Shown: one piece after another, positions 460 through 37,840 of the stretch
How positions within the stretch are numbered: position 1 is the first letter of the stretch
How the letters are laid out: each line of letters opens with the position of its first letter
Assembly: GCA_016187485.1 (NCBI GenBank)
Contig: JACPJO010000004.1
Span: forward strand, 56,306 to 120,305
Length of the DNA stretch: 64,000 bases
Direction: 5' to 3'
DNA from: Candidatus Uhrbacteria bacterium
Lineage (GTDB): Bacteria; Patescibacteriota; Patescibacteriia; UBA9934; UBA10169
Made by a program: the position numbers and the translations under genes
The notes under the pieces: generated by a model
What the model was told of the DNA's origin: nothing
Seen by the model: the letters and a program-made list of their open reading frames with translations, nothing else
Database searches by the model: none

Positions 460-1350
460 TCACAAGCGCCCCGGGCCATTTGGATTGTACCCGCCCTTTA
501 CCTCTTCCCCGTCGCCATATCCATCCCCATCCGTATCGGGATTTGTGGGGTTCGTGTTGCGCTGACGCTCTTCCCCATCAGAGAGTCCGTCCCCGTCCGT
601 GTCGACCACATCCGGCCGCGTACCAAGAATCTGCTCGTTCTTAAGAGAGAGGCCGTCCCCATCAGCATCGCGCGCCAGGACGTCTTTACGGCACGTCTCG
701 GTTTGACCGGCAGACGAGAGACGATCGCAAAGCGCGACGTCTCCCATCTCGAGCGCCTGAGCAAGAAACGCGGCATCCATACATACCGCCTCGGCAACGC
801 CGTAAGAACGACAAGATCCCTGCTCAACCACGTAACGGAGGAGTTCGCTCTCGCAAGATGCGCGCAGGTTCTCCTCCTCCACTCGCCCGCACCGCGCATA
901 ATCCTTTGCTTCTTTCGCCTGTGTCAAAAAGACATAACTCTCACACACCATGCGCTCGCTCCCCTCAAGGCTTCGGCACACGTCCGGATCTTGTTTCTGG
1001 ATAGCAATATCACGCACACAGGGAAATTGTTCGCCCGCGGGAAGAACAAGGCAGGCTTCCAGCGTTCCACTGGCTACAATTGTGCCCGAAACAAGATTTT
1101 GACGGCAAGCCTCGGGATCGCTCGCGTTCTCACACAAGGCGAGTTCCCCGTTGACGCGCTCGGTGGTGGCCTGCTGTTGCCCTGCACGCTCAAGAGCGGT
1201 AAGCCGTTGATTCGCGCGCCAGCGTACACCAAAGACAGCACCGAGAATCACAAGAAGCACCACAAAAATCCCTACGCCAATCATGACCCAGTTATGCGCG
1301 TCCTCATACCACGGCGGCGTGTAGTTATTGTACGGCAGGGGTTCTTCCAT
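460..1350 (-). CDS. Membrane protein with C-terminal thrombospondin-type-3-like Ca-binding repeats (DTDGDGLSDGEE, DTDGDGYGDGEE). N-terminal TM helix, Cys-rich central region
   Basis: 296-aa ORF. TM helix WVMIGVGIFVVLLVILGAVFGV. DxDxDG acidic repeats at the C-terminus. Its start lies 1 nt downstream of the giant gene's stop, so the two are probably translationally coupled. Confidence 0.6.
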   Translation of the reverse strand: MEEPLPYNNYTPPWYEDAHNWVMIGVGIFVVLLVILGAVFGVRWRANQRLTALERAGQQQATTERVNGELALCENASDPEACRQNLVSGTIVASGTLEACLVLPAGEQFPCVRDIAIQKQDPDVCRSLEGSERMVCESYVFLTQAKEAKDYARCGRVEEENLRASCESELLRYVVEQGSCRSYGVAEAVCMDAAFLAQALEMGDVALCDRLSSAGQTETCRKDVLARDADGDGLSLKNEQILGTRPDVVDTDGDGLSDGEERQRNTNPTNPDTDGDGYGDGEEVKGGYNPNGPGRL

Positions 1351-1351
1351 A

Positions 1352-4300
1352 TTATTGCGGACAGTACTCCAAACGGAGGTCGGAAAGATTCACTGTACCC
1401 GACCCGTTGAAGTTGATGTGGAAAGGAATCTGGAAAGCGCCACTTGCGGGACATTCAAATCCGGGCGGGAACGGGAGAAGGACATCATCGCCTTCGCTTG
1501 CGACACCCCCCGCAAAGCCTGTCGTAGTTTCGTAGTTCAAACTGAGACCCAGAATATTTGCGGTGATGGTGTCTACCACTGCCTGGAAACCATCGGCGTC
1601 TGGAGCGTTATAGGCATATTCCACGCCATCGGCGGGAGGCGCACACTCCGGCGTGCCGTCGCTATTGTTAAGTTCATAGAAGTCCACGCCGCATACATCA
1701 CTCGAAAAATGATTATTGACGGCAATTTCGTCGTCGTTTGAAGTAAAGGCGACCGTATAGATAACCGTATTTTCCAGGGTGTCAAGCGTGTCAGACGCGG
1801 CAGCGGCAGCGAGAAGATCGTCCGATTCCCCATCGGAAACAAGAATCACAATACGCACGTCCGTATCTGGCCGATCGGTAGTGAGAAGTTCGTATGCGCG
1901 GCTAAGCCCGTACGCCGTATGCGTACCCAACCCCGTGCCCGGATTTGCTAGTTGGGAAAGGTTAAGTACAAGTTCACTCTTGCTTGCCGTGAACGAGGCA
2001 TTGGGTAGAGGATTCTCTGCAAGCACATCGGTAGCTGGATTTACTTCATTGAAGATGACAATGCCGCTTGCAAGATTGCCGTTGGGGAACGCGTCATAGA
2101 GTTCGTCTGCCGCATCTACGAGCGCTTCTTTCACAATATCAAGACGGGTTGATTCGTCTGCTTCTGGCGGTGTCCCATCAATCTCGTAGGACATGGAAGT
2201 CGAATAATCAATAAGAAAGATGAGATCTATGTTGGGTGGTTCGACATCATCAAAGCTCACCGAGGCGTACAGCGCCGAACCCACAGTACAGGCCGGGAAG
2301 TAGAGAGTGGCATTATCGGGAGCGCCGGCGGTGGCAGGGTCTTCTGACAAGTAGCTCCTCAAATCCACCGAGGTCGTTCGATTGACGGCCGTCTCGCTTT
2401 GCGCCAGCACAGCTCCTTGTTCGAGTGTGAACGGACATGCAAGCGAGCAGGAAGCATTGCAATCTTGAAGCACGCAGCTTCCAAACGTGTCAGGATTAAA
2501 GATTGGGTCTCCGCATGCCTTGTTATAGTCAAAAGTTTCCGGAGGGGGTTGGGCGCAAGGAAATCCGTTGTACACATATTCCCCATCAACGGCCGTCGCA
2601 GACCCGCCATTACAGGTACCCACAAGCGCCTCGCACGTGTAGTCGAAGGGGCAATCCGCATCCGTCCCACAGACTTCGCCGCGCACTCGTTCGGTGGGGT
2701 TGATTGCTCCCTTGAAGCAGTAAGACGGCACGCTTGCTCCATCGCATACCTCTCCGCCGTTGATAACGCCGTCGCCGCAGTAACCACCCGTGACCGTCTG
2801 GTACGTACATGTGGCAGAGCAATAGTTACAGGTGTCACTGTAGGCGGGATTGCAGGGCACCCCGTTTTGTCCGCCGAGGTCGCATGACTCAACGCCAACG
2901 TTGCGCACGCCGTCGCCGCAGACATTTTGCGTGCAGTTATTCCGACACGCATCCTGTTCGTCCGTATCTCCATCATCGCATTCCTCGATCCCCTCCGGAA
3001 TGCCGTTGCCGCATGATCCCACAGGTGCACAGGCCTGCCAGCCGCCCGGGATCCCCGTCGTTGTAGGCCACCGGCACGCATTGGTATAGGGCGGCAGTCC
3101 AAGTCCGTTACACACACGTGTGCGCGTTTGCGGAAGACCAAGCGTATCAGACGCCGTACTTGCAGGGCAGACTCCCGCCCAGGAAAGTGCGGGGTCGCCG
3201 CAGAGAGAGCCGTCGGCACACTCTGCATTTGTCGTACACGGATCCCCATTGACACAGAGTTTCCCGTTCCACTGCTCGTTTGTGCCATCACACTCTTCCG
3301 CGGCACCGTTTACGGTACCGTCCCCGCACGAAGGAGCAGTCCCGGAACAATCCGCTGCGCATCCATATGCAGGATCTGTCGAGTACAGACCGTTGAGATA
3401 ACTTGCCGACGCCGTGCGGCATTGCGGAGTGGGCGCCAGCAAGTTAAAGGACGCGGCGCTGCCGCAATCACAGGCTTCAGCTCCCCCGATAAGTCCATCC
3501 CCGCAAAAGACCGCACTCGTCCACGTGCAGTTGGTCGCACAGAACCCATATTGACCGTTGAGCGGCCCATCATCACACGTCTCCGAACCTTGAATCACGC
3601 CATCCCCGCAGTAGTTAGGAATACAGGCGGCAGAGGTAGAAGCAGTCTGGAAGGCTTGGCATCCCAGGCCCGACGCGTCCGACGGCCCCACGCACGGCAC
3701 GGCGCGCGTTCCCGATGTGGCCACACAGGAGCCGTTGCTTCCGCAATCACTGGCGGTAGTACAAGGCAGGCCATTAAACGAGAGGTTCACGGCGTTTGCA
3801 CACACATTCGTGGAGCAAGAAACAGATGTTGTCTCTCCTACTTCGCAGATTTCTCCCGATCCAATCAACCCGTCTCCGCAGACATTCGTTGCGGTGAAGG
3901 TCGCTCCATTACAGGTGCGCGCATTTTGGAATCCGCCAAGTACAGGCGTGCTCGCAAACGGAGAGGGAAGATTTGCGTTGCCGACATAATATGTCCCGAG
4001 ATTAGGGAGGGGGGAATCCACATCCACGGGCGAGGCCCACGCGAGCGTCGTCTCGGCAGGAGGAGCCACGCCAAATTCCAAATCGGTCGAAAGCCAGAAC
4101 TCTTCCCCGCCGATACTTCGATAGGTGTACACGTGCGAATCTGCCGGACATATCGCCTGCGCTGCCAGAGCGTTGTAACACGTCTCTGCGTCGTAGCCAT
4201 CCGGACAGCTCACAAATGTGTTGAGCGGATCTGTCGGGACCGCGCGGCCAAGCGCGTTGGCCAATTGCGCCTGCCAGCTTGGCCAGGCAGAAAGGGAGAA

Positions 4301-7300
4301 TGAGGGGATATACGTCCCCGATCCAAGCGTCGGCACCGACGCCACGCATTCCTCGGCGCCTGAACAATCGCTGTCTTCAAAACAGAGTTGATCTTTAGTG
4401 ACACTGCAGTGCCGGTGCGTCTCGCCGTATGATGTAAGGGCCTCGCCAATAGTGCGTACGTCCGTAAGACGCTTGAGATCGCGACGGAGCTTGTCCTTGT
4501 CGGCATCGCAAAGCGCCGGCGAACCTCCCGTTGCCACCGCCGCGCACTCTGCATCCGTTGAGCACGCAACAAGCTCCCCATTCACTTCGATCGGGTCCAT
4601 GTCCCCGCTTGGGAGAGGCGTTGCGCAAACCCGGCCGTTTGTGACGGTCAAAAGCCCTGTCGTCAAGTCACGTGCACCGGCAAATTCCCATGCCCCAAGC
4701 ATAGCTTGATAGATTTGCCTGGTTTCCGCTGACGCCCCTTCGTTGTACGCAATCGCATACATATTGGGATAGAGCGCCGCGCCGGTGTTAGGTGCGGAAA
4801 CGTAGACCGTTCGGCCGTCACGCACACCCTCGAACCCGTCCACCGATTCCGCAGCAGGAGAGCCGACAAATCCTTGACCGGCAAACCACTCGGCGGGAGA
4901 GAGATAGTTGCTGTTGGAGAGCACGCGCACACCGATCGCGTCGTGTATATCCGGATCGTCCACGGCAAAAAGGAACTCCTTAAAAATCCCCGGTGACGCA
5001 ATGTTCTGCGTTTTTTGGACAACCGAGAGAGCCGGTAAGTCGTCACTCGTGCCGCGCTCCCCTGCATCACGGCAATAAAATGCGGAGAAATTCGTGTAGG
5101 GCGCAGTAAGCGTAATGCCCGGCGCTGGGTCTCCCGCATACCAGGCAGAATCTACAAACGGGAAATGTCCCACAGCCGGCCACGGGTTTTCACAAAGGAA
5201 CACGCGCTCCTCTACCGTGCCGCCCACGATTCGCCCAACGGTAGTGGGTGAGAGAACCGTATCTTCCATGATACGCAGTTGCGCCATGACATTCTCAACC
5301 CCATTGATCGCGGGGTTTGCCGTGGAAGCAGTTGCTGTTGTGTTGGCGCTGGTTGAAGCACCGGGAGTCACAACGACAATATTGGGGTCGGCGACACTCG
5401 AATTCCACCCCCATGTGGTAGAGACGGAAGTTCCGCTCCATGCCCACGCATACACTCCCGGCACACTCACGATAGGTTGCGCCAACGGCCCTATAAGTGT
5501 CATCGCCTCCGCCGCAAGTGGATGAGCCGTGTTCGCCTGTGTAAACAGGCCGGGGCTCGCGGAGAGGTCTTCCACCTGCACAAAATCTACGTCGCAAATA
5601 GTATTCCCCGTAGCAAAAATACGGGACCACGATGCCTCAAAGTTGGCAAAGACCGAGGAGTTTCCCACGAGCCCAACGCCCCATCGACTCAATACCCCAT
5701 CAGGATTCGCATCCGTATAGTTCGCATCCGCTTCTACCAAAATGCGGTAGAGCGTCTGTGGTTCAAGGATTTGGTTGTAGAGCACCGACACGCGTGTGAT
5801 GAACTCATCAGGATTCGTCTCGACATCTTCGATGGAGAGATTGGAGGCGACAATGCAGCTCACACTTCCCGCCCACGCGCGTGGCGCCACCACGCGCAAA
5901 ATATTCTGCCACAGACGGGCATACCACGGACGGTCAGAAAAATCCTGCACGATGACGGGCGTCGTATTCGTGGGGCAATCAGAGGCCGTCGTGTAGCGTA
6001 CGTCGGCCGAGTCGTAAGCGCCATTGCCGTTCGTGTCCTCCCCAAAAGCCGTAAGCACAATATGCTTCGTCCCGTTATCTTCCAAAATGCTCTCTTCACC
6101 CATTTGTTGCGTAAAGGCCACACGCACAAGCGCGTTTCGACACACGCCGGCACTCGTGGTGGCAAGCGGAACCGTGGTGCTTTCCTGTACCGCCGGACGA
6201 TCAAAACAGCAGTCACTCACCCCACAGCCAAGCAGGGCCGGCTCGCCGCATGTCGCATCGGTTGTGCAGGAGCACGAAAGACCGATCTCGGCCGTGCCAA
6301 ACGCTGAAGTCTCTGTTGCATCGTCCGAACCCGTTGCGCGAAGCGTCGTACGGACTTCCCCGTCCACGACCGCTTGGGTGGCAACGGCCTCGATTTCAAG
6401 CGTCTGGAGGGGATCGTACGGCCCCACCCCATCATCCGCGCTTGAGGAAATTTCACATTCCTCTCCAAGTTCCGGCAGACCGCCGTTGCCACAGAAGGAT
6501 GGCACCGGATAGAAAACCGACGAGCCTTCGTTCTGGCATTGTGCGGAGCACCCGTCACCACTTGTCGTATTTCCATCATCGCACTCCTCGCCGGCTCCTG
6601 TCGTCACGTTGTACTCTCTCCCGTTGGAACCACAGACACCATTCAAAATTCCCGTGGGGGTTGTGCGCGACCAGACACCCGGACCGAGCGGTTCAGCTAA
6701 ACAATTCGCGCTACACCCGTCCCCACTCGTGATACCTCCGTCGTCACAATCTTCCCCTTCTTCGACGTCACCGTTTCCACAGTGCACGCCAATATCGGCG
6801 CTTGGAGTGGAACCTTCGCGCAAACACTGCGCCGAACACCCATCGCCGCTTATCGTATTGCTGTCTTCACACTCCTCCCCGCCGGAACGGCCGTCCGGTG
6901 TTACTGTGTCGAATTGTGAAATCGTTCCGTCATTACATGTAAGTCCCGCCGCCGTCGAACCTTCGTTAAGACATGTTGCGGAACATCCGTTGCCGTCCAG
7001 GTTGCCGTTGTCGTCACATTCTTCGCGCCCTTCCCGGATACCATTGCCACAACACAACAGATCGGTTGCGGGGTTTGCACATGCGGTCACCCCGACGGTT
7101 TGACACGTGGGAGAACACCCAATGGGGTCAAGCGCGACATCACAATCTTCGTAGAAAGGATTGACGATGCCATCTCCGCAGACCGCCGCATACGAAATCG
7201 TCCCCGTACGCAAACACTGTGCACTGCACGAGAGAGCACGATCGGTGTCAGTGTCAAGAGTGGCCGTGAGCGTGCCGTCGGGAAGGTATGTCGCTACCGA

Positions 7301-10300
7301 GATCTGCGTATTCGTGGCAGAGTTCGTCACTTGATTCACCAGCCAATCCCATGCGTAAGCAAGCGGATTCAATACTTGGCCGGCCACGGCACAGCTGTCC
7401 GGTCGCCCCGTCACTGACGCGGAGAAACTTGCGCGGTCCCCCACGGCTTCAAGAATCACCTCAAGGGGGGAGAGAGCAACGTTCCCAATCCCGCAGGGGG
7501 CCGCATTATCCCGCGTGCGGAAAACCCACGAATAATAATTCCCGTAGTTGAGCGGTATAACCGGTGTGCCGTCCGGATTCGTAACCCCCCAGAGGGGAAT
7601 TCCCGGCACGGTAGGACTTTGCGGCTCCGATGTAATCCCCCCCCAGATCATCACACGATAATACATCGAGGGAGAAAGATCCCCGGCAAGTGTAAGTGCA
7701 ACGCCGTCTTCGACGTCCAATGGATCGTTTACAAAAGAGAGCGCTGTGGGGACAGGAGAGGTCGGATTGAAGGTTGCACAGAACTCATCCTCACAGGCAA
7801 AAACGCGCACATTTGGTTCAAGCACGTTTACCGCATTAACGTGACTCCCCGTAAGCCCCGTCGTTCCTGTTGCTTGCATGGCCGTGTTAAAAACGGCACC
7901 CACTTCTGCGTTCACACAGGCTGTCGTGCACTGTGGGTACGCGAGAGATACGGCGGGGTCGGTGAAATTCACGATCAATTCTTCCGTGTCAGAGATGCTG
8001 TAGCCAATGGGCGTGGCCGTGACAAGTGCCGGCTGTCCCGCATTGGTTTCCTCTTCAGGCACCACAAAGATAGGCTGGAGATTTTCAAAGGCCTGCGCGG
8101 CATTCCCCAAAAACAGGAGCGCATCGTTGATGTCCCCTTCAAGAGGACCGTACTGCGGATCTGCCGTCACGGGATCTGCGGCCTCCTCTGCAGCATCAAG
8201 CGCCGAAGAGAGCGTATCACCGGCAAGCAGCACAGGATTGAGCAGCGAGAAGACCGTGACGGTCTCTGCTGCGAGAGCCGTGTTCGTGCTTGTGAGCGTC
8301 GCAGCTGTTGGCCCTACCAGAGCATGCGCTTCAGGGAGGATCGTTTGCAGCGCCAGGAGAGCATCGGCAAGATCTGCAAGGTTGGTCGGAACCTCATCAA
8401 GAAGAGTTGTTGCCGGCGTGGCCGATTCCGGATCCCCAAGTGTTACCGTGTAGGGCGGATCCACATCAAAGTGGATGTTCTTTCCCTGCCGGTCGAGTTC
8501 CCACGCAAAGGCGTAATCATCAGGGTTGATAAGCACACACGCCCCCGTTGCAGGCAGAGCAACATACGGAATCGTCTCGTCGCTCGTCGCCGTATAATCT
8601 GGCGGACTTACGAGCACCTCTTCTACTTCGCAGGGAGTGGTGCTGGAGCGCGTCTTGAATCGATATGCATACGCCTGTGCCAGAGGAACACCACGGTTGT
8701 TTTTAATACCTGTGGTCGCCGTCGCGCGATACCAGGTATCGGGAAGCAGAGCCGTCGCAGGCGAGAAGATCAGGGAGAGATTCGTCGAGAGCAGAAAGTC
8801 TCCGGCAAGATGTCCTGTGGCAACCGTCTCGCAAGGATCCACTCCCGTCCCCGTACACCGATCTACGTAGAATGAGCCGTTGGTAAACGTAGAGATGTCC
8901 ATGCCGCTCGCGGGAAGGCCGGGAGTGAAGGAAACAGAGACCACCGCATTTGTACAGACGGCATCCCCATCGCTCCACAGTGTTGAGGGCGTGGGGGAAA
9001 TAAATGAGGTATCACACTGCGTACGGATTGTCGGATAGTTCGGGATGGGGCCGGTCGAGAAATGATACACGTACTGGGCGTTCACACTTGGCTCCCCGCA
9101 GGCGGCGGGCGTTGCCGCGCAACTGCCGTTCGAGCAACAAATTTGCGATGCCGTACACAACGAGGGCGTCTCTTGGCAATTCCCTACCGCAAAGAGAAGC
9201 TCATTTGATGGTGCGCCAAGAACCGTCACAGAAACCGGACCTGAAATGGCGCCCGTCGGTACAGGAGCGCTGACGTTCTCCGAAGAAGTGAAGCCAACCG
9301 GGCTTGCGGCTACCCCATCGTGGAAGGTGACACTCACTTCCGACGCGCTTGCGCCAAGATTGCTTCCGTAAATATTCACCGCTGTCCCCACAGGCCCCGC
9401 CACAGGCGCAAGCGCGCAAACGCCGGGTGTTGCAGGCGCCGAGACAACCGTGAAATCCTCCGCGTTACTTTGCGGACTCGTAGGGTAATCCGCACGGCGC
9501 ACAAAAATAGATTTGGGATTGGATTCCTCCGACGTGGTCATACTGGCTGGCACTTGCGCCACAATCGCCGAGTCCGTCCACCATGCATTCTGGCACGCAG
9601 CGGGAAAGTCCGGTTCAAACACCACATCGCCAAGCAAAGGGTCCTGAAAGACAACCACCCCTTCGGTAGATCCAAATCGTTGGCCTAAAATAGTCACGTA
9701 TTGCCCCACGCCACCTTCGGTCGGATGCGCAACACATTGTCCGGTTCCACACTGCGTATCGGACACACAAAGCTGCCCCGCATGTACGATATCGTTTTCA
9801 CACAAGGACCGGCCGGATGTCACTTCGCTGATGAACGGCGCACTGGAGGCATCTTCCGGTGAGAGAACACTGAAGTCAATCGTGTTAGACCCCTCATCAT
9901 TCACGAACACTTGGAGATCGTAGTCGCCCGGAGTACTCGGCGGAACAAGCAAGCTGATAAGCGCATCAAGCCACGTATCCACAGCGGGAAAGAATGACGC
10001 GCGATATACCGACGGACCGCTCAAGTAAAACGCCCCGACCGTCGGATCCTCCCCAAAATTATTTCCCACCACCGAGATGCGCGTAGCGGGCAGGCCGTTG
10101 CCCGGCGTTACCGCACAGAGCCCAGGACGGCGCACGTCATTCACATCAAAGTCTTGGATAAGCGGGCCGAAATCGTCATCCGTTCGGTCGGTAATTCCTG
10201 GCGTCGTGGCCGTCTCTGCTTTTACCACGCCGATCGCCCCATCTGCTGCCTCGGCAGGTACCGCCACAACTACCTGCGTGTTGTTCCAGCTCGGCGCCGG

Positions 10301-11728
10301 ACACGCAATGGGATCCACTTTAATGTCATCCGCCTCGGTATCCGGAGAACCGTAGAAGTACACGATGTTCGCTTGTGCACCAAAACCTGTTCCGTGAATC
10401 GTGACGAAATTATCCGGCGCGCCATTGCCAAGCGAAACCGATTGAATCCGCGGACCCGTGACGCAAACGCCGTTTACACAAAGCCCCGACGTGCAATCGC
10501 TGTTTTGGACACACACCGACGCATCGCAAGAAAGACAGTCCTCCCCGCCGCAATCTATCGCCGCCTCATCTTCATTTTGAATGGTGTCGGTACAGTGCGG
10601 GGCAAGAGCCGTCACGGGCACGCTGGAGGATGTCGTTTGATTACCGGCACAATCTGCCGCCACCGCGCGAATGGCATGGGTACTCGCTGGGGTAAGGTTC
10701 CCGGGCGTCCACGAACCCGATGCAAGACAGCTCACGGGACCGTCCCCCGCACAGGATGCCGGACCCGCAGAATCCACGGCTGTATTATCTACCGTAAAGG
10801 TGGTCACGCCCACACCGGAATCATCTGTAAGACTTGCCTGCAGAGACAGGGGGTAGCCCTCGTAGACAGGCGCGCCAGACGACGGATCAGTAATAGTCAC
10901 GGTTGGCCCCGTTGTATCTATGGCATCTGTCGTGGTGAAACCAAAGGAGCACGGCGCGGCAAGCGAACAGGCAATCTCTACGCCGTCCGCGCTTCGTAGA
11001 CCCTCAGAAACACGTACTTCGTAAGAAGTCGCCGGCTCAAAGCAGCGCTCAGAAGAACTGGGACAAGAAGCATCCGGCAGAACAGTAAGCACACGGCCAG
11101 AAGCGGAGAGATCCGTGGAAATAGCGTCCCCTCCGACAGGCGTCACGGTTATGTAAGGGGCAAGGGCGCTCGCGGACGTGGGAAGGTTTCGATTGAAGAG
11201 AATCTGAATCTCCGCATTTCTCGGCACCGAGGGAACCGAGGCCAGACACCCCCACGACGTAACGACAAATTGTGTGCGGTAGTCGGCAGGACATGTGGCG
11301 CAGGTGCTCAAATTTGTATCCTCCGGCCCCCCAATGACGTTGTTCTGCGACGTGGCGCCCACGAGCGATGAAATGACGAATTGCGCAATAGCAAAGGACG
11401 CCAAAATGATGGCAAGCCCGATGACCGCATTAATAATCATGCCGCGCGCTTTGCGCACCTTTTCCTCTTCTCCCTTCGAGAGCATCCACAAAAACCCGGC
11501 GTACAAGATCATGCCAATCAAGACCACGCCAGAGAACGTAATCGCTGCGCGCACAAGCCGCGCAATGATAAGACGGATGTCCGATGTCCCTCCAAACCCC
11601 GCTTGTGTGGCAAAATCTCCGAGGCCCTCGGTAATCGGCGACGAGGCGGCAAAAACAATATCGGGAAGCCACACGAGTGCGCCGAGAGAGAGGAGGAAGA
11701 CCAGTTGGGAGATGATGCGGCGTTTCAT
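1352..11728 (-). CDS. Giant (3458 aa) secreted, membrane-anchored surface protein. N-terminal signal peptide plus two-helix pilin-like hairpin, IPT/TIG-like beta-sandwich repeats, two arrays of Cys-rich CGDG/CGNG-x-EECDDGN-x-DGCS repeats (Myxococcus cysteine-rich-repeat type), C-terminal von Willebrand factor A domain with a MIDAS motif
   Basis: Single uninterrupted ORF with balanced amino-acid composition. N-terminus MKRRIISQLVFLLSLGALVWLPDIVFAASS, then TM helices GVVLIGMILYAGFLWM and AVIGLAIILASFAIAQFVI. Motifs VTIHGTGFG, VTILGQRFG and VNIYGSNLG are IPT-like. Repeats such as CGNGIREGREECDDNGNLDGNGCSATC occur about 6 and about 10 times. The VWA motif is DLIFLIDYSTSMS...GLGTHTAYGL...VILVSDGES. 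Confidence 0.85.
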   Translation of the reverse strand: MKRRIISQLVFLLSLGALVWLPDIVFAASSPITEGLGDFATQAGFGGTSDIRLIIARLVRAAITFSGVVLIGMILYAGFLWMLSKGEEEKVRKARGMIINAVIGLAIILASFAIAQFVISSLVGATSQNNVIGGPEDTNLSTCATCPADYRTQFVVTSWGCLASVPSVPRNAEIQILFNRNLPTSASALAPYITVTPVGGDAISTDLSASGRVLTVLPDASCPSSSERCFEPATSYEVRVSEGLRSADGVEIACSLAAPCSFGFTTTDAIDTTGPTVTITDPSSGAPVYEGYPLSLQASLTDDSGVGVTTFTVDNTAVDSAGPASCAGDGPVSCLASGSWTPGNLTPASTHAIRAVAADCAGNQTTSSSVPVTALAPHCTDTIQNEDEAAIDCGGEDCLSCDASVCVQNSDCTSGLCVNGVCVTGPRIQSVSLGNGAPDNFVTIHGTGFGAQANIVYFYGSPDTEADDIKVDPIACPAPSWNNTQVVVAVPAEAADGAIGVVKAETATTPGITDRTDDDFGPLIQDFDVNDVRRPGLCAVTPGNGLPATRISVVGNNFGEDPTVGAFYLSGPSVYRASFFPAVDTWLDALISLLVPPSTPGDYDLQVFVNDEGSNTIDFSVLSPEDASSAPFISEVTSGRSLCENDIVHAGQLCVSDTQCGTGQCVAHPTEGGVGQYVTILGQRFGSTEGVVVFQDPLLGDVVFEPDFPAACQNAWWTDSAIVAQVPASMTTSEESNPKSIFVRRADYPTSPQSNAEDFTVVSAPATPGVCALAPVAGPVGTAVNIYGSNLGASASEVSVTFHDGVAASPVGFTSSENVSAPVPTGAISGPVSVTVLGAPSNELLFAVGNCQETPSLCTASQICCSNGSCAATPAACGEPSVNAQYVYHFSTGPIPNYPTIRTQCDTSFISPTPSTLWSDGDAVCTNAVVSVSFTPGLPASGMDISTFTNGSFYVDRCTGTGVDPCETVATGHLAGDFLLSTNLSLIFSPATALLPDTWYRATATTGIKNNRGVPLAQAYAYRFKTRSSTTPCEVEEVLVSPPDYTATSDETIPYVALPATGACVLINPDDYAFAWELDRQGKNIHFDVDPPYTVTLGDPESATPATTLLDEVPTNLADLADALLALQTILPEAHALVGPTAATLTSTNTALAAETVTVFSLLNPVLLAGDTLSSALDAAEEAADPVTADPQYGPLEGDINDALLFLGNAAQAFENLQPIFVVPEEETNAGQPALVTATPIGYSISDTEELIVNFTDPAVSLAYPQCTTACVNAEVGAVFNTAMQATGTTGLTGSHVNAVNVLEPNVRVFACEDEFCATFNPTSPVPTALSFVNDPLDVEDGVALTLAGDLSPSMYYRVMIWGGITSEPQSPTVPGIPLWGVTNPDGTPVIPLNYGNYYSWVFRTRDNAAPCGIGNVALSPLEVILEAVGDRASFSASVTGRPDSCAVAGQVLNPLAYAWDWLVNQVTNSATNTQISVATYLPDGTLTATLDTDTDRALSCSAQCLRTGTISYAAVCGDGIVNPFYEDCDVALDPIGCSPTCQTVGVTACANPATDLLCCGNGIREGREECDDNGNLDGNGCSATCLNEGSTAAGLTCNDGTISQFDTVTPDGRSGGEECEDSNTISGDGCSAQCLREGSTPSADIGVHCGNGDVEEGEDCDDGGITSGDGCSANCLAEPLGPGVWSRTTPTGILNGVCGSNGREYNVTTGAGEECDDGNTTSGDGCSAQCQNEGSSVFYPVPSFCGNGGLPELGEECEISSSADDGVGPYDPLQTLEIEAVATQAVVDGEVRTTLRATGSDDATETSAFGTAEIGLSCSCTTDATCGEPALLGCGVSDCCFDRPAVQESTTVPLATTSAGVCRNALVRVAFTQQMGEESILEDNGTKHIVLTAFGEDTNGNGAYDSADVRYTTASDCPTNTTPVIVQDFSDRPWYARLWQNILRVVAPRAWAGSVSCIVASNLSIEDVETNPDEFITRVSVLYNQILEPQTLYRILVEADANYTDANPDGVLSRWGVGLVGNSSVFANFEASWSRIFATGNTICDVDFVQVEDLSASPGLFTQANTAHPLAAEAMTLIGPLAQPIVSVPGVYAWAWSGTSVSTTWGWNSSVADPNIVVVTPGASTSANTTATASTANPAINGVENVMAQLRIMEDTVLSPTTVGRIVGGTVEERVFLCENPWPAVGHFPFVDSAWYAGDPAPGITLTAPYTNFSAFYCRDAGERGTSDDLPALSVVQKTQNIASPGIFKEFLFAVDDPDIHDAIGVRVLSNSNYLSPAEWFAGQGFVGSPAAESVDGFEGVRDGRTVYVSAPNTGAALYPNMYAIAYNEGASAETRQIYQAMLGAWEFAGARDLTTGLLTVTNGRVCATPLPSGDMDPIEVNGELVACSTDAECAAVATGGSPALCDADKDKLRRDLKRLTDVRTIGEALTSYGETHRHCSVTKDQLCFEDSDCSGAEECVASVPTLGSGTYIPSFSLSAWPSWQAQLANALGRAVPTDPLNTFVSCPDGYDAETCYNALAAQAICPADSHVYTYRSIGGEEFWLSTDLEFGVAPPAETTLAWASPVDVDSPLPNLGTYYVGNANLPSPFASTPVLGGFQNARTCNGATFTATNVCGDGLIGSGEICEVGETTSVSCSTNVCANAVNLSFNGLPCTTASDCGSNGSCVATSGTRAVPCVGPSDASGLGCQAFQTASTSAACIPNYCGDGVIQGSETCDDGPLNGQYGFCATNCTWTSAVFCGDGLIGGAEACDCGSAASFNLLAPTPQCRTASASYLNGLYSTDPAYGCAADCSGTAPSCGDGTVNGAAEECDGTNEQWNGKLCVNGDPCTTNAECADGSLCGDPALSWAGVCPASTASDTLGLPQTRTRVCNGLGLPPYTNACRWPTTTGIPGGWQACAPVGSCGNGIPEGIEECDDGDTDEQDACRNNCTQNVCGDGVRNVGVESCDLGGQNGVPCNPAYSDTCNYCSATCTYQTVTGGYCGDGVINGGEVCDGASVPSYCFKGAINPTERVRGEVCGTDADCPFDYTCEALVGTCNGGSATAVDGEYVYNGFPCAQPPPETFDYNKACGDPIFNPDTFGSCVLQDCNASCSLACPFTLEQGAVLAQSETAVNRTTSVDLRSYLSEDPATAGAPDNATLYFPACTVGSALYASVSFDDVEPPNIDLIFLIDYSTSMSYEIDGTPPEADESTRLDIVKEALVDAADELYDAFPNGNLASGIVIFNEVNPATDVLAENPLPNASFTASKSELVLNLSQLANPGTGLGTHTAYGLSRAYELLTTDRPDTDVRIVILVSDGESDDLLAAAAASDTLDTLENTVIYTVAFTSNDDEIAVNNHFSSDVCGVDFYELNNSDGTPECAPPADGVEYAYNAPDADGFQAVVDTITANILGLSLNYETTTGFAGGVASEGDDVLLPFPPGFECPASGAFQIPFHINFNGSGTVNLSDLRLEYCPQ

Positions 11729-11737
11729 GCAAGGTTT

Positions 11738-13648
11738 CTAGGGAGCGGGAGGAGAGAAAATGGGCGGTAGGGGACACGAGCCGGAGGCAAGCGCATTTCC
11801 GTCGCAACAACTTGGCTGTGAGGCATCCACGGCGCAATCCCCCGGCGGGCCATAGGCGGGGTAATAACAAATTTGATAGGCCGACTCCACTTCGTTATTG
11901 ATAAAAGGGTAGTACAGCTGTGTGATGGTATCCTCCAGGTAGTCCAGGAACGACCCGTGCTCCAAAACCGCAACGGTCCCCACGACTTCTGGCTCCGTCG
12001 CAGGCGGGACTGCGGGCACCGTCACTCCCTCCGCAAGAGGCCGATACCAAATTTCATGGAACGGGCGCGGAGCAATGCCCATATTCGTGTTCGTTAGTGA
12101 CCCTACACGCATCGGCACATCAAACGTCACGCGCACGGGGGCAGAAATATCCACGTCGGGCTGATTTAACGTGGGAAGCAAGGACGCGATGGCGGGGCGA
12201 TCGAGGTTTACATCATCCGTCGTTGAAAAAAATGACCAAAAGTTGTCTATGGCAAGATCGTCGTCCGGCTCTGGCGTCAGTGCCGCGTTGGCTGGCGGCC
12301 CATTGGCAATAAGATTTTGGTCGTCGCCGTTTTTCCCACCTCCATCCAGAGAATTCCCTGCCACGTCCACCACGCCATCGTAGCCCACAGCCGTAAAGAG
12401 CGCTTGAGGCGGTTCGGCGCCGAGCGTGGCGGCACGCACCAGAAGCGTAAAGTCATCATTCCCTGGAAGACAGAAGATTGCTCCTCCGCAAGCGTTCTCG
12501 CCGCATTGGTCAAAACTCGTAAATTCGGTCGTGCGGTACCCATTTGTGATGCGCCATGTGCCTTCTACCGGTACCGCGTCACTATCGTCGTCACGCACTT
12601 GGAGGTTTGAGAAAAATCTTGCCGGCGTGGCGGTGGGACGATGCACTCCCGCCGTGGCGGTAGGGTCTACCGCCTCATTGAAGTTCACTTGCACCACGAT
12701 ATTGCGGTCTACAGTCCGATCGGCAACAGGAATAACGCTTTGCACATAGGGCGGGGTAATATCCACCACCGTGGAGACCGTAAATGACCAGGCATAGCCC
12801 GTGGTATTGGGCGGAGGGAAGGCCGGAAACGTTGTCGTAAGGTCAGGGCCAAGTTTCAAAATATCGGCATCCAAAAGGACAGAGTAGTTTTGCTCTTCTT
12901 CTGCGCTTCCAATAAACTCCACCGGGTCAAAGACAAAGATTTTTTTGTCTGCTGTATACGTGACGTCTACGGCATCTTGCACAAGAGCGCCCGCAACCCC
13001 ATCAGCCGTACGGTAAATTTTCACATTGCCCGCATTCACTTTACCCCGCGGGACTTCGGCCACCGGATCAATCGTGCCCGGAGCAATGAGGGAGTCAACA
13101 AACATCGATTCTTTAAATGTCACGATAATTTTTGTGTTGCGCGGGATCTCTACCGCTCCGCGAGCGGGATAATGATCTTCGATAATCCCCTGCCCCAGCG
13201 CTCCCGAAAGCGGTTCAATAAAGCCGGCAATGTTGGTAGAGGTAGATGGCTGGCGAAGCCCGAGCGAGCGCAGAAGCGCACTTAAGATAAACGAAGCGAT
13301 TCCGTAAGACGCAAGCACGATAGCCAAACCGATGACGGCGGTGCGAATGATGCCGCGCGCGGTTTGGATTTTCTTGGGATCGCCACCTGCCAGCATGTAG
13401 CGAATACCGGCGTACACAATGAGACAGACAAAGACGATGCCCAAAAACCCAATGACCGCACGAACAATCTTTGCTGCAATCACGCGAACGTCTTGTGTGG
13501 GCAGACCCTGAGCGCCAATGTCAGAAAGATTTGCGCCAAGCCCTGCTTCTGCGCCGAATGCTATCGACGAGAGAAAAAACAAACCCGCCGTCACGCTAAG
13601 AGTGATGGCTAAAAAAAGAGCGCTGCGTTTTGCACCCACAAACCGCAT
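11738..13648 (-). CDS. 636-aa secreted, membrane-anchored protein. Its N-terminal signal peptide plus two-TM hairpin module is paralogous to that of the giant protein
   Basis: N-terminus MRFVGAKRSALFLAITLSVTAGLFFLSSIAFGA...VRVIAAKIVRAVIGFLGIVFVCLIVYAGIRYMLAGGDPKKIQTARGIIRTAVIGLAIVLASYGIASFI aligns residue-by-residue with the giant protein's N-terminus. Its stop lies 10 nt upstream of the giant gene's start. Confidence 0.75.
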   Translation of the reverse strand: MRFVGAKRSALFLAITLSVTAGLFFLSSIAFGAEAGLGANLSDIGAQGLPTQDVRVIAAKIVRAVIGFLGIVFVCLIVYAGIRYMLAGGDPKKIQTARGIIRTAVIGLAIVLASYGIASFILSALLRSLGLRQPSTSTNIAGFIEPLSGALGQGIIEDHYPARGAVEIPRNTKIIVTFKESMFVDSLIAPGTIDPVAEVPRGKVNAGNVKIYRTADGVAGALVQDAVDVTYTADKKIFVFDPVEFIGSAEEEQNYSVLLDADILKLGPDLTTTFPAFPPPNTTGYAWSFTVSTVVDITPPYVQSVIPVADRTVDRNIVVQVNFNEAVDPTATAGVHRPTATPARFFSNLQVRDDDSDAVPVEGTWRITNGYRTTEFTSFDQCGENACGGAIFCLPGNDDFTLLVRAATLGAEPPQALFTAVGYDGVVDVAGNSLDGGGKNGDDQNLIANGPPANAALTPEPDDDLAIDNFWSFFSTTDDVNLDRPAIASLLPTLNQPDVDISAPVRVTFDVPMRVGSLTNTNMGIAPRPFHEIWYRPLAEGVTVPAVPPATEPEVVGTVAVLEHGSFLDYLEDTITQLYYPFINNEVESAYQICYYPAYGPPGDCAVDASQPSCCDGNALASGSCPLPPIFSPPAP

Positions 13649-13689
13649 GCGTCTATTATACTCTACTTTCTCTTTATCTTGTGTGGATA

Positions 13690-14130
13690 CTACACGAGAA
13701 TCTTCTCGGCAGTCGCACGGACGCGCGCGCCATCCGCCCGGCCGACCAGACGCTTCACCGCCGCTCCGATAACCTTTCCAATATCCGCTTTCGTCTTGGC
13801 ACCCGTCTCCTCGATGACGGCGCGCACGACCGTTTCGATCTCGCTATCGCTCGCTTGCGCAGGGAGATAGGCTTCAAGCGTGGCAATTTCCGCACGCGCT
13901 TTCTGCGACAAATCCTCGCGCGCCGCCGATTCATAGGAGACGAGCCCGTCCTTGAGCGCCTTGAGTTCTTTTTGGATCACGGCCGTCGCCTCTTCATCGG
14001 TAAGCGCGTGCCCCACCTCGATCTGCCGATATTTCATGGCAGACTGCAAAAGGCGCAGCGTCGAAAGTTTACCCGCATCCTTCTGCTTGAGCGCAGAAGT
14101 AAGATCTTCGTGGATACGTTCGGAAAGCAT
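13690..14130 (-). CDS. yqeY: GatB/YqeY-domain protein
   Basis: MLSERIHEDLTSALKQKDAGKLSTLRLLQSAMKYRQIEV... is typical of YqeY. I took the internal ATG at 14130 as the start. The track's longer 225-aa ORF adds a basic, low-complexity N-terminal extension. Confidence 0.7.
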   Translation of the reverse strand: MLSERIHEDLTSALKQKDAGKLSTLRLLQSAMKYRQIEVGHALTDEEATAVIQKELKALKDGLVSYESAAREDLSQKARAEIATLEAYLPAQASDSEIETVVRAVIEETGAKTKADIGKVIGAAVKRLVGRADGARVRATAEKILV

Positions 14131-14194
14131 AGTGGAAACTAGTATAACAGAATTTTGTGGAAACCAAAGAACGGCGCGTGGCCGTTCTTTTGTG

Positions 14195-14443
14195 TTATGT
14201 TCGTGTCGTTTGCGTCGGCCGCGGTTCTTCCTTCCACTGTCCTGTACGCATAAGGTATTCGCGCATGACCGAGAGTTCCAGTCGGCGCAAAGCCGAGGCG
14301 CGGCGTGCCGTCTTGTTCGGTTCGGCGTTGAAAAAACGAATCTTGCGGACCTGAAGCGTCCGTCCACTCAACTGCATGCGGCGGCTGAAGCGGCGGAAGA
14401 GGCTCTCAAAGCTTTCATTTTTTTTGCGTGTGACTTTCAACAT
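14195..14443 (-). CDS. rpsU: 30S ribosomal protein S21
   Basis: MLKVTRKKNESFESLFRRFSRRMQLSGRTLQVRKIRFFNAEPNKTARR matches the S21 family pattern. Confidence 0.8.
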   Translation of the reverse strand: MLKVTRKKNESFESLFRRFSRRMQLSGRTLQVRKIRFFNAEPNKTARRASALRRLELSVMREYLMRTGQWKEEPRPTQTTRT

Positions 14444-14485
14444 AGTTTCACCTCCCAGAGGTGGGCATACGGTACCGATCGCACA

Positions 14486-15787
14486 TTATTCTGTCAACCC
14501 GAGGCGTTTCTTCACCATCGAGACAACTTTGTTTGCATCTACGATTTCCTGGGCTCCCGATTCCATATCGCGAATGATAATCGTCCCGTCCAGAACCTCT
14601 TTTTGGCCCAAGATCAGCGTGATGGCAGCTTCCTGTTTGTTGGCCATCTCAAGTTGCGCCTTGAGCGCTCCTTTGCCAAACGCTTCCGCCACCGGCACGC
14701 CAGCAAGCCGAAACTCTTCATAAAGTTTCAGTCCCTTGCGGCGCGCGGAATCGCCCAGCTGCGCAAAGAAAATCTTGGGTTGAAAACGAGCGGGAGGATG
14801 TAGATTGAGTTCGCGCATGGCATTCACGACACGCTCAATCCCCACAGCGAACCCGCACGCCGGTGTTCCCTCGCGTCCGCCCAGCAATTCCACCAAACCA
14901 TCATATCGCCCGCCAGCCGCAAGCGCCCCCTGCGTCGCCGTCGAGGAACTTTCACTCGATGTGTAGAGCTCAAAGACTGTCTTGTTGTAGTAATCAAGCC
15001 CGCGCACCAAAAACGGATTCAAGCGATACGGCACTTCCACCTCTTCCAAAAATTCCAAGACTTTCATGAAATGTGCCTTGCTCTCTTCATCCAGCCAATC
15101 CACAATCTGCGGCGCTTCAGCAAGCAGCTCTTTTACTGTAGGGTCTTTTGAATCAAGAAGTCGGAGCGGATTCTTTTGGAGACGCACTTTATCGTCCTCG
15201 CTCAACCGCGAGCGGAACTGGCGGAAGTACGCGACCAGCTCCATGATGTATTCCCGTCGCGTTTCGGCGGTGCCAATCGAGTTGACCTCCACAATCGCCG
15301 GAATGTCCAGGTCGCGGAAAAAACGAGAAGCGATGACTATAAGCTGGGCGTCCACGATAGGATCAGCTTCCCCGATGGATTCAAACCCGAATTGATGGAA
15401 CTGGCGATACCGTCCTGCCTGTGGTCGGTCGTGCCGGAACATGGGGCCGAGATAGAAAAACTTTACCGGTTGCGGGCGGTTCAACATGCCGTGATTCACA
15501 TAGGCCCGCGCGATCTGTGCAGTCGCTTCGGGACGGAGTGCCACGCGCGCGCCAGACTTATCCTCGAATGTATACATCTCCTTCTCGACGATGTCCGTGG
15601 CTTTCCCCACGCTCCGATTAAACAGTTCCTCGTACTCTAAGAGCGGGAGCTCGATCTTTGAGAAACTGTAATATTCCGCAAACGAGCGCGCACGGTCACG
15701 GATAATGTCCCAATACGCCTGTTCTTCGGGAAGCACGTCGCGGAACCCACGCAAGGTCTCAATAACCTTCACGCCTTTTTTTGGCAT
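14486..15787 (-). CDS. hisS: Histidyl-tRNA synthetase
   Basis: LRGFRDVLPEE, class II aaRS motifs and an HisRS anticodon-binding C-terminus. The track ORF extends to 15880 with a Lys/Pro-rich extension. The internal ATG at 15787 (MPKKGVKVIETLRGFRD) is the more likely start. Confidence 0.88.
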   Translation of the reverse strand: MPKKGVKVIETLRGFRDVLPEEQAYWDIIRDRARSFAEYYSFSKIELPLLEYEELFNRSVGKATDIVEKEMYTFEDKSGARVALRPEATAQIARAYVNHGMLNRPQPVKFFYLGPMFRHDRPQAGRYRQFHQFGFESIGEADPIVDAQLIVIASRFFRDLDIPAIVEVNSIGTAETRREYIMELVAYFRQFRSRLSEDDKVRLQKNPLRLLDSKDPTVKELLAEAPQIVDWLDEESKAHFMKVLEFLEEVEVPYRLNPFLVRGLDYYNKTVFELYTSSESSSTATQGALAAGGRYDGLVELLGGREGTPACGFAVGIERVVNAMRELNLHPPARFQPKIFFAQLGDSARRKGLKLYEEFRLAGVPVAEAFGKGALKAQLEMANKQEAAITLILGQKEVLDGTIIIRDMESGAQEIVDANKVVSMVKKRLGLTE

Positions 15788-21666: not shown

Positions 21667-22179
21667 ATGCGCCCACTCATCGTGGGGCTTGGCAATGTCG
21701 GCAAGGAGTATGAGCAGACACGGCATAACGTGGGATTTGAAATCGTAGACGCACTTGCAAAAGGAAAAAATCTTTCATGGAAAAAGGAGGCGGCACGACA
21801 CGCGTTTGTGGCCACATCGCGAGAAGTGATTTTGGCAAAGCCCACCACCTACATGAACCGCTCGGGAGAGGCTGTACGAGAACTTGTGTCGTTTTACAAA
21901 CCCTCCCGCATCGTGGTGATCTACGATGACGCCGACTTGCCCATGGGAGAAATCCGTGTGCGCGGAGACGGTCGGAGTGCAGGCCACAACGGAATTGCGT
22001 CCGTCATTGAACATATTGGAGAGGAGGCGTTTACGCGTGTGCGTGTAGGCATCGGCCGGCCAGAAAACAAAGATATTCCTCTTGAAGATTGGGTGCTCGG
22101 AACGTGGAATGAGGAGGAATGGAAAAAGATAAAAAATATTGTGGAGGAGGCCACACAAAAAGTCGAAATCCAGCCGTAG
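21667..22179 (+). CDS. pth: Peptidyl-tRNA hydrolase
   Basis: MRPLIVGLGNVGKEYEQTRHNVGF... Starts 1 nt after the der stop. Confidence 0.9.
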   Translation: MRPLIVGLGNVGKEYEQTRHNVGFEIVDALAKGKNLSWKKEAARHAFVATSREVILAKPTTYMNRSGEAVRELVSFYKPSRIVVIYDDADLPMGEIRVRGDGRSAGHNGIASVIEHIGEEAFTRVRVGIGRPENKDIPLEDWVLGTWNEEEWKKIKNIVEEATQKVEIQP

Positions 22180-22202
22180 GGCTGGATTGAGGAGAAAGAA
22201 CA

Positions 22203-23825: not shown

Positions 23826-23900
23826 AGGTCGCCAGACCCACAGGAGCCTCGGATGCTAACAAGAGAACTTCCTCTCGTCAAGCATCACAAGTACAATAGC

Positions 23901-35726: not shown

Positions 35727-36449
35727 CTAGATGCGTTCAATGGTAATGTCGCGAAAGGTCGCAGACTGACGTGTGCGCACAAGCCGCTGTTTCATAAGCT
35801 CAAGAAGCGCCAAAAAGCTTACCACCACATCTATTCTTCGAGACGCACCCGACGTGAGGTCACGAAACGCGAGCGTCGCACGCGACATAATGGCAGCGCG
35901 TAATTCCTGCATGCGCTCCGCTACCGACGCCACGCGCTCCATCGTAGTACGCTTAAGAGCAAAGAATGGTTCAAGTATACGCAGCACGCGTGCAAAAGCT
36001 TCTTCCAGAACCTTCCCTGTAAGCGTCGAGGGAAATGCACGTGTCTTGAGTGTCGGCAGTTGCGGCCTCGGCCGTTCTGCCATTTTTGGCAGGAGAGAAA
36101 ACGCTTCCTCGATGTGCGGCGCCAATTCCATAAAGAGCTTGTAGAGTTGAACTTGCAGGGCAAGTTGCTCTCCTGTCCGTTCCTCCTCTGCTTTCTTCTC
36201 TGGGAGCAATTCTTGGGACTTCAGATAAAGAAGACGCGAGGCGACAAGGAGAAAATCTGCAAGTTCGTCCGCCGGTACTTCATGCGTATCGAGATACCGC
36301 AGATATTGTTCGGTAACGGCCGAAAGGGAAACTTCCGTGATCGGCATCTCTTCGTGCTCGATCAATTCCAGCAATAAATGAAGCGGTCCAGAAAACCGTT
36401 CGGTCTCGATAGTGTACGCAGGTCGTTTGCGATCCTCCATGTTATACAA
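35727..36449 (-). CDS. scpA: Segregation and condensation protein A
   Basis: FSGPLHLLLELIEHEEMPITEVSLSAVTEQYLRYL. Confidence 0.85.
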   Translation of the reverse strand: MYNMEDRKRPAYTIETERFSGPLHLLLELIEHEEMPITEVSLSAVTEQYLRYLDTHEVPADELADFLLVASRLLYLKSQELLPEKKAEEERTGEQLALQVQLYKLFMELAPHIEEAFSLLPKMAERPRPQLPTLKTRAFPSTLTGKVLEEAFARVLRILEPFFALKRTTMERVASVAERMQELRAAIMSRATLAFRDLTSGASRRIDVVVSFLALLELMKQRLVRTRQSATFRDITIERI

Positions 36450-37839: not shown

Positions 37840-37840
37840 A

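Follow-up and report, generated by a model that had tools for sequence, protein, structure and literature searches.

The stretch analysed here, 64,000 nucleotides (nt) from a Candidatus Uhrbacteria bacterium (contig JACPJO010000004.1, positions 56,306 to 120,305; hereafter the window), contains a giant protein-coding gene with two tandem arrays of cysteine-rich repeats. The 13 repeat units are positional orthologues, ancient and fixed in position; the repeat scaffold is conserved and the inserts carried by certain units evolve fast, such that loops vary and unit number does not. Taken as a whole, the evidence is probably best explained if the arrays are spacer modules, stiffened by Ca2+ and disulfides, in a membrane-anchored adhesin that is headed by a von Willebrand factor A (VWA) domain.

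Units were located with a scan for the motif CG[DNS][GN], and residues of the giant protein were converted to window positions on the basis that residue N begins at nt 11728-3(N-1). This gave a total of 13 units, six in array 1 and seven in array 2, plus a leading half-unit. A 'CGSNG' at amino acid (aa) 2662 was rejected as a unit start since it sits within an insert. The features are as follows, where each start of a full-numbered unit (A1 to A6, B1 to B7) is a match to the motif and where HMM denotes a hidden Markov model.

1352..11728, minus strand: giant open reading frame (ORF), 3458 aa, a single ORF holding both arrays
7181..7267, minus strand: leading half-unit A0, aa 1488-1516, with the closing C-x3-C only (C1501/C1505), from the family HMM
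6404..7180, minus strand: array 1, units A1-A6, aa 1517-1775, from TIGR02232, DUF4215, the family HMM and AlphaFold2 (AF2)
7052-7180, minus strand: unit A1, start aa 1517
6938-7051, minus strand: unit A2, start aa 1560
6782-6937, minus strand: unit A3, start aa 1598
6635-6781, minus strand: unit A4, start aa 1650
6494-6634, minus strand: unit A5, start aa 1699
6404-6493, minus strand: unit A6, start aa 1746, N-half only
2435..3880, minus strand: array 2, units B1-B7, aa 2617-3098, from TIGR02232 (4 stretches) and the family HMM (all 7)
3611-3880, minus strand: unit B1, start aa 2617, carries an insert
3506-3610, minus strand: unit B2, start aa 2707, compact
3329-3505, minus strand: unit B3, start aa 2742, carries an insert
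3014-3328, minus strand: unit B4, start aa 2801, carries an insert
2921-3013, minus strand: unit B5, start aa 2906, compact
2780-2920, minus strand: unit B6, start aa 2937, compact
2435-2779, minus strand: unit B7, start aa 2984, carries an insert, ~115 aa

The two cysteine-rich arrays had been proposed by a first-pass annotation of the sequence; they were real, and their first motifs fell exactly where it had begun them, at aa 1517 (nt 7180) and aa 2617 (nt 3880). It had counted about 16 copies with a period of about 35 aa and had ended array 2 at aa 3000 (nt 2728). In place of these values, 13 units and a half-unit were found, the spacing ranged from 31 to 105 aa, and array 2 ran on to aa ~3098 (nt ~2435). 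Successive starts were separated by 43, 38, 52, 49 and 47 aa in array 1 and by 90, 35, 59, 105, 31 and 47 aa in array 2, which closed with a final unit of ~115 aa. The compact module measured ~30 aa and followed the pattern CG[DN]G-x5-E-x-CD[DG]-x6-8-C-x3-C; a regular expression for the half-motif produced 12 matches, against 0.008 expected (2000 shuffles). The same annotation had described four invariant cysteines per unit. This held for the compact units A1-A5, B2 and B5, and for B6 with the addition of an extra pair, and it failed for A6, which had two cysteines only, and for the four array-2 units interrupted by Cys-rich inserts (B1, B3, B4 and B7), where extra cysteines lay inside the long inserts.

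A second short Cys motif, C-x3-5-[ST]-[DQ]-C-x3-6-C, was observed in the giant protein at aa ~380-425, 643-666 and 2389-2461, as well as in the inserts of B1, B4 and B7; examples are CVQNSDCTSGLCVNGVC, CVSDTQCGTGQC, CTTASDCGSNGSC, CTTNAECADGSLC and CGTDADCPFDYTC. It produced faint Dickkopf-like Pfam matches only, and the array-2 inserts seem to be built from it.

An orthologue survey, for which one genome per species was scanned, returned 80 loci, mostly metagenome-assembled genomes of Candidatus Uhrbacteria, and the best of these was 50% identical over its best segment. A complete giant ORF (2887-3881 aa) was present in 55 of the 80 loci, and a full-length alignment was prepared from the giant protein and 54 orthologues from other species (25-54% identity), to which the conservation values given below refer.

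The proposed membership of the Myxococcus-type cysteine-rich repeat was borne out by HMM scans. Among NCBIfam models, TIGR02232 (myxo_disulf_rpt, cysteine-rich acidic repeat) matched the whole giant protein with 117.8 bits (E = 1.2e-34, cut-off 20.8). Array 1 alone scored 109.3 bits in 5 stretches and array 2 alone 30.7 bits in 4 stretches. Only B2 (27.2) and B5 (27.3) exceeded the cut-off as single array-2 units; the matches to B3 and B7 were limited to model positions ~3-18, that is, to the N-half (15 bits), while A6, B1, B4 and B6 had no TIGR02232 match individually and were recovered only by an HMM made from orthologues. This family-specific HMM, built on 268 compact units of orthologues, recovered all 13 units together with the half-unit just upstream of A1, where its match (aa 1485-1515) covered the C-half only and where C1501 and C1505 were each 94% conserved. 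DUF4215 (PF13948) scored 50.8 bits on array 1 alone, passing its gathering threshold of 27, and remained below that threshold on the whole giant protein (19.6) and on array 2 alone (22.9). Pfam Disintegrin (PF00200) had no match at E <= 1 on either array, and neither did TIGR04201, the TraA-type repeat; TIGR02232 was the sole NCBIfam model listed for the two arrays at E <= 1.

In database searches, 576 DUF4215 proteins matched array 1 and 559 hits were returned for array 2. The repeat family is already known and widespread, and its presence in large surface proteins of Candidate Phyla Radiation (CPR) bacteria was noted earlier; the function of DUF4215/TIGR02232 is still listed as unknown, and a diatom adhesive-trail protein has 12 copies. 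Three aspects are modestly new here: the fixed 6+7 layout across the lineage, the split units with hypervariable inserts, and the tie between DUF4215, domain M3 of the metalloprotease PAPP-A and Ca2+ site II of ADAM proteins. The 'cysteine-rich repeats' that two papers discuss in connection with horizontal gene transfer (PMC7379824, bioRxiv 2026.06.07.730663) are of another kind, found mainly in fungi, and these papers were not considered further.

Repeat number had been expected, in the first-pass annotation, to be labile and to cause differences in length between strains. This would make the arrays variable-number tandem repeats, in which slippage or recombination alters copy number and the length of the stalk differs by strain. 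The DNA gave no sign of it. Tandem Repeats Finder reported no array anywhere in the giant gene, and the longest stretches of DNA shared within the gene were imperfect and 25-28 nt long. When the gene was compared with itself through pairwise alignment of its eight compact unit cores, mean identity was 37% for amino acids (maximum 57%) and 50% for DNA (maximum 60%), and the longest exact DNA match between cores was 12 nt. With unit DNA about 50% identical and exact matches no longer than this, slippage or unequal crossing-over would have nothing to act on.

Comparison between species likewise showed the units to be positional orthologues. The Cys-Gly at the start of each of the 13 units was aligned with Cys-Gly in 80-100% of the 54 orthologues (B1-B7, 94-100%; A1, A3 and A4, 100%; A2, 80%; A5, 87%; A6, 94%), and the closing cysteines of B7, C3090, C3094 and C3098, were 87-96% conserved. 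The spacing signature of array 2 recurred across orthologues (~55-90, 35, ~59, ~95-140, 31 and 47 aa), with modal lengths of 35 aa for B2 (30 of 55 proteins), 31 aa for B5 (44 of 55) and 47 aa for B6 (42 of 55). In a comparison restricted to three proteins, units in the same position scored 146 between species, versus 55 for units in different positions within one protein. Hand inspection of the database proteins P0001 and P0002 showed that unit signatures stayed in place ('CDCG' in B3, 'NGxYGxC' in B2 and 'WxG' in B4), and the closest relative (L002, 54% identical) carried all 13 units.

Within the sampled population the gene was 100% identical at the DNA level, over the parts covered, in independent assemblies from six runs (SRR12113431, -422, -428, -429, -390 and -432); array 1 was covered in four runs and array 2 in five, all from one study's population. 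No length variation of the gene was seen in these six runs, nor in a further contig (L154) described below. The exact protein was present on 5 public contigs. A metagenome scan for a same-species relative or a divergent strain found none, the best match being 31% identical.

Some observations do favour a variable copy number. The coefficient of variation (CV) of length across species was 0.21 for array 1, the highest of the main internal segments (array 2, 0.11; middle domain, 0.10; Ig region, 0.07), the values for the short N-anchor and the VWA/C-terminal segment being 0.19 and 0.30. A2 and A5 were missing in ~10-20% of orthologues, the arrays were enriched in indels in close species pairs, and strain variation is reported for large Cys-rich surface proteins of Peribacteria (PMC4736985). 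However, the indels occurred in inserts and not at unit boundaries. The marks of a variable-number tandem repeat or contingency locus, near-identical DNA units and a copy number that differs between close relatives or strains, were both absent from the genomes and runs compared. For this gene the variable-number explanation is largely refuted and must be considered very improbable; tandem repeats at the protein level need not mean genetic instability.

Length and sequence varied in the inserts instead. Among the most closely related species pairs (overall identity 70-81%), indels were concentrated in the arrays, inside the inserts of A1, B1, B4 and B7; in A1, for instance, L018 and L021 differed by an indel of 107 aa. 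Units B2, B3 and B5 were mostly 74-95% identical in close pairs, with no gaps, the exceptions including B3 in L050/L053 (48%, 17 gap positions). By contrast, B1, B4 and B7 were 27-70% identical with 4-56 gap positions, and B7 in the pairs that were 70-81% identical overall showed 40-63% identity with 4-39 gap positions. The insert of B7 also contained the sole variant in the population:

2570..2734, minus strand: B7 variable insert, ~aa 2999-3053, site of the sole population variant (aa 3016-3035)

In this variant (L154, from SRR12113426) there were 6 nt differences within 58 nt, at positions 9048-9105 of the coding sequence (window nt ~2624-2681). In sum there were three synonymous changes and, through CCCTTC>CCTCCT, the replacement of F3028 by P, without a change of length; the other ~1,390 nt of overlap with the gene were identical. 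The pattern resembles that of a brief tract of recombination, or else of a second strain.

These observations bear on a second explanation, which has been given a tentative place only, as possible but rather doubtful: array 2 and the VWA domain would form a host-recognition head, whose scaffold displays hypervariable, Cys-knotted inserts (B1, B4, B7 and perhaps B3) that would decide which host or surface ligand is bound and would diversify under selection. The inserts of close pairs were 27-70% identical, versus 70-83% for the rest of the protein, with many indels; the population variant clustered in the B7 insert; immediately after the inserts comes the VWA domain, whose motif of metal-ion-dependent adhesion site (MIDAS) type is intact; and the insert cysteines were partly conserved, which suggests folded knots over disorder. 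Nonetheless, relaxed constraint on loops could by itself explain fast divergence, AF2 gave the inserts no confident fold, one variant only was seen within the population, and no template repeat like that of a diversity-generating retroelement (DGR) was present in the window. A DGR-type mechanism for the variable inserts was rejected, there being no pair of template and variable repeats in the 64-kb window. If a recognition head were correct, this would be a core giant adhesin of Uhrbacteria, and diversification of its inserts would set host or partner specificity in episymbionts.

The spacer explanation draws on what is known of the unit in solved proteins. No PDB chain matched either array by single-sequence search. 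The profile of orthologous array 1 matched the end of an ADAM17 catalytic-domain construct, VCGNSRVDEGEECDPG. The compact-unit profile matched pappalysin-2 at residues 880-910 (E = 3.6e-5) and pappalysin-1 (prepro numbering) at residues 946-978 (E = 2e-4), with weaker matches to ADAM17, ADAM10 and bitistatin, in alignments confined to the first ~17-30 residues (E = 0.05-0.5). AF2 models were made with alignments drawn from database hits. For array 1, mean pLDDT was 69, with units at 85-92 and linkers below 50, and pTM was 0.28; the predicted model fits beads on a string. Foldseek placed this model closest, among PDB entries, to 36-residue stretches of PAPP-A2 and PAPP-A (root-mean-square deviation 1.5-2.0 A, 42-53% identity), and next to the start of the ADAM22 and ADAM17 disintegrin domains. 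The model of array 2 was confident for B2, B5, B6 and the start of B4 only. As array 1 opens with a C-half and closes with an N-half, an alternative folding register was considered, in which a C-half would combine with the next N-half; it was rejected because the low-confidence linkers of AF2 fall between C4 and the next C1, and because PAPP-A M3 contains one unit in the conventional register.

In PAPP-A, residues 944-995 (S944-G995) constitute domain M3, a small domain of coil and strand with intradomain disulfides and two Ca2+ in the map density (PMC9579167). In ADAM proteins, Ca2+ site II has the consensus XCGN(X)3EXGEXCD, the ligands being the side chains of N, E, E and D, and its ion is held so tightly that EDTA fails to strip it (PMC4885070). 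Unit A4 (HCGNGDVEEGEDCD) was an exact fit to this consensus. Of the ligand positions, D/N at C1+2, E at C2-2 and D/E at C2+1 were present in 12 of 13 units, A5 having Ser at C1+2, and the three columns were 85-100% conserved. DUF4215/TIGR02232 is thereby linked to a solved Ca2+-binding disulfide module, PAPP-A M3, and to ADAM site II, and the link gives a concrete hypothesis of biochemical role for DUF4215, a domain of hundreds of bacterial and eukaryotic surface proteins.

Cysteines were even in number throughout: 152 in the giant protein, 26 in array 1 and 54 in array 2; Cys density in the arrays was 9-11%. The arrays were also acidic, array 1 having 17% D+E versus 2.8% K+R. From the even counts, and by analogy with the intradomain disulfides of the homologous PAPP-A unit, a disulfide-bonded spacer is plausible.

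Where the protein lies with respect to the cell was judged from its N-terminus. Besides the arrays, its parts include:

11351..11728, minus strand: signal peptide and two-TM (transmembrane) VirB2/T4SS_pilin-like anchor, aa 1-126, from PF18895 and hydropathy
3932..6178, minus strand: middle domain between the arrays, aa 1851-2599, family-less, with CENPWP and YCRDAGE motifs
1727..2227, minus strand: C-terminal VWA domain, aa 3168-3334, from PF00092 and a DxSxS MIDAS-type motif

In the hydropathy profile, aa 4-30 form a signal peptide and aa 53-86 and aa 94-126 are the two TM helices, and the K/R-rich loop between the helices corresponds to VirB2/T4SS_pilin topology; the match to PF18895 (T4SS_pilin, VirB2-like; aa 51-118) was marginal, at 27.8 bits versus a gathering threshold of 26.6. 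Given the signal peptide and two-TM topology at the N-terminus, the remaining ~3,330 aa are placed outside the cell, and a predominantly extracellular location is a well supported prediction from these features and the PF18895 match. Thus, of the extracellular, disulfide-bonded stalk that had first been suggested, the location stood by N-terminal topology, and the disulfide-bonded spacer is plausible by inference.

Pfam and NCBIfam domains covered much of the protein, aa ~1851-2610 being without a match. Its first ~1,050 aa included a Big_7, three TIG and two Big_5 domains, and the order overall was pilin-like anchor, Ig/TIG domains, six repeats, family-less domain, seven repeats and VWA. The VWA domain scored 30.6-35.3 bits with PF00092 (cut-off 23.8), and its DxSxS motif reads as an intact D-Y-S-T-S in the translation. 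The ~750-aa middle domain (aa 1851-2599) had no Pfam match at E <= 1 and was kept in all orthologues, including P0001, P0002 and the 80 loci; its invariant motifs include CENPWP, NFSxxYCRDAGE, DAIGVRV and YPN.Y..SYNE, and its relatives are Patescibacteria proteins. It was also observed alone in shorter Patescibacteria proteins (P0004, and P0007, which is 'DUF5057 domain-containing' in one source). A Cys-free, Ala/Leu/Thr-rich insertion of ~110-135 aa was observed at aa ~1079-1215 (window ~8084-8494, minus strand) and was missing in >80% of orthologues; because of it, segment 1091-1487 measures 397 aa, the greatest length in the set of 55 proteins (median 264).

On the spacer explanation, each TIGR02232/DUF4215 module would owe its stability to a pair of disulfides and to one or two structural Ca2+. 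Array 1 would act as a semi-rigid, beads-on-a-string spacer from the Ig/TIG-rich proximal part to the middle domain, and array 2 as a second spacer beside the VWA head, with compact B2, B5 and B6 as its invariant scaffold. B1, B3, B4 and B7 would represent the same module opened by Cys-rich inserts, those of B1, B4 and B7 being the parts that evolve fast in sequence and length, and B3 being fairly conserved in most close pairs. Array 2 may also present these variable inserts next to the VWA/MIDAS head; that they are folded, exposed loops is an assumption. We infer disulfides, Ca2+ binding and rigidity for the arrays and an adhesin role for the giant protein, whose most likely function is to attach an episymbiotic CPR bacterium to a host cell or to a surface.

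Several points weigh against this explanation. The case for attachment comes from domain content and analogy only. The Foldseek E-values were weak (>=0.14), because the matched unit is only ~36 residues; the array-2 inserts had pLDDT below 50; and the fourth ADAM-type ligand position had an oxygen donor in only ~9 of 13 units. Anoxic groundwater is the habitat of many CPR bacteria, and the formation of disulfides outside the cell is not guaranteed there; the scanned ORFs of the window included no gene of Dsb or VKOR type, although these represent 64 kb only and the absence means little. The last two points lead to a third explanation, which is quite unlikely: the cysteines would not form disulfides but would serve as metal ligands (Zn or Fe-S type clusters) or remain reduced, and the arrays could, for example, make up a surface matrix that binds metal or is redox-active under anoxic conditions. 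The very high Cys density of the arrays, the titles of loci, which show the lineage to be typical of anoxic groundwater, and the lack of a disulfide-forming enzyme in the scanned part of the window are in its favour. Against it, PAPP-A M3 and the ADAM disintegrin domain use these same cysteines in disulfides, and it is their acidic residues rather than the cysteines that bind Ca2+; Cys counts were even; the conserved ligand-like positions were D, N and E; and with 64 kb of genome examined, the absence of Dsb is a weak argument.

The giant protein was compared with several known systems. Like the TIGR02232/DUF4215 proteins found in Myxococcota, in many further bacteria and in certain eukaryotes, the giant protein has the motif CG[DN]G...E.CDDGN...GDGCS..C and tandem units in a secreted or surface protein. 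Unlike them, its repeats are embedded in 3,458 aa with a VirB2-like N-anchor and a VWA C-terminus, the count and order of units are fixed across the lineage, and four units of array 2 are split, such that curated HMMs detect the N-half or nothing. In two DUF4215 matches, P0127 and P0098, the repeat occurred together with metalloprotease domains (reprolysin-type or astacin); such an ADAM/pappalysin-like layout in bacteria fits an old link between the repeat and metzincin ectodomains.

M3 of pappalysin-1 and -2 (PAPP-A, PAPP-A2; PDB 8a7d, 7ufg and 8sl1) is the sole solved copy of the repeat, and the profile match spans the whole unit. In contrast to the arrays, it is a single-copy connector in a metazoan metalloprotease and lacks inserts. 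The paper on PAPP-A reports the M domains to be without sequence similarity (PMC9579167). The likeness to ADAM and P-III snake-venom metalloproteinases is confined to the Ds ('shoulder') region, where the N-half of the unit reproduces the consensus of site II and where the giant protein has an ADAM-like 'CDCG' in B3; the C-half and the fold beyond ~17 residues differ, and the giant protein, unlike ADAMs, is without a metalloprotease domain. The Cys-rich stalk of Myxococcus xanthus TraA resembles the arrays in its proposed role, that of a disulfide-stiffened stalk that presents a variable recognition domain on a cell-surface receptor. Its repeats, however, are TIGR04201 and not TIGR02232, its anchor is MYXO-CTERM, and its variable part is a PA14 domain, not repeat inserts; the resemblance is one of analogy only.

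Among CPR bacteria, large Cys-rich extracellular proteins of Peribacteria are weakly similar both to the Myxococcus repeat and to pappalysin, and attachment was proposed for them (Anantharaman et al. 2016, PMC4736985). Like the giant protein they are very large, exported and Cys-rich; unlike it, they belong to another phylum-level lineage and are different proteins, with a mean of 1,655 aa. Strain variation was emphasised in Peribacteria, whereas the giant gene was invariant in the sampled population.

The giant gene stood between two others on the same strand:

11738..13648, minus strand: upstream neighbour, 636 aa, with the same pilin-like anchor and Big_5, 9 nt from the giant gene
460..1350, minus strand: downstream neighbour, 296 aa, with one TM, a Cys-containing region and bacterial TSP3 repeats of Ca2+-binding type (PF18884, 51.8 bits)

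The anchor-coding DNA of the 636-aa neighbour was paralogous to that of the giant gene, and a pilin/Big_5 gene was located immediately upstream in 55 of 55 loci. The TSP3 gene, 1 nt from the giant gene, was downstream in 41 of 55. The conserved gene order was HisRS, YqeY, pilin/Big_5 gene, giant gene and TSP3-repeat gene. The window, which is core chromosome, also encodes signal peptidase I, Der, DprA, topoisomerase I, RelA/SpoT, ParAB, SecY, ribosomal protein L2, EF-Tu and EF-G. A giant surface protein of ~3,100-3,900 aa with a fixed domain order is conserved in a core-genome operon of at least 55 Uhrbacteria-type species, from Candidatus Uhrbacteria and related Patescibacteria.

One syntenic orthologue (L001, ENA ERZ1286166 contig_5423, 4476-15250) was broken into six called genes by frameshifts, and HisRS was also split there; assembly indel errors are the most likely cause. 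It follows that P0001 and similar database entries represent pieces of a giant gene.

Two further features of the window were observed. G+C content rose to 62.5% at 22001-24000, versus ~55% elsewhere, coinciding with an ORF of 540 aa (22203-23825, minus strand) that had no Pfam match and was overlapped by an ORF of 445 aa on the opposite strand. At 36442-39187 (minus strand) there were tandem class II tRNA-synthetase genes of D/K/N type, encoding 465 and 448 aa.

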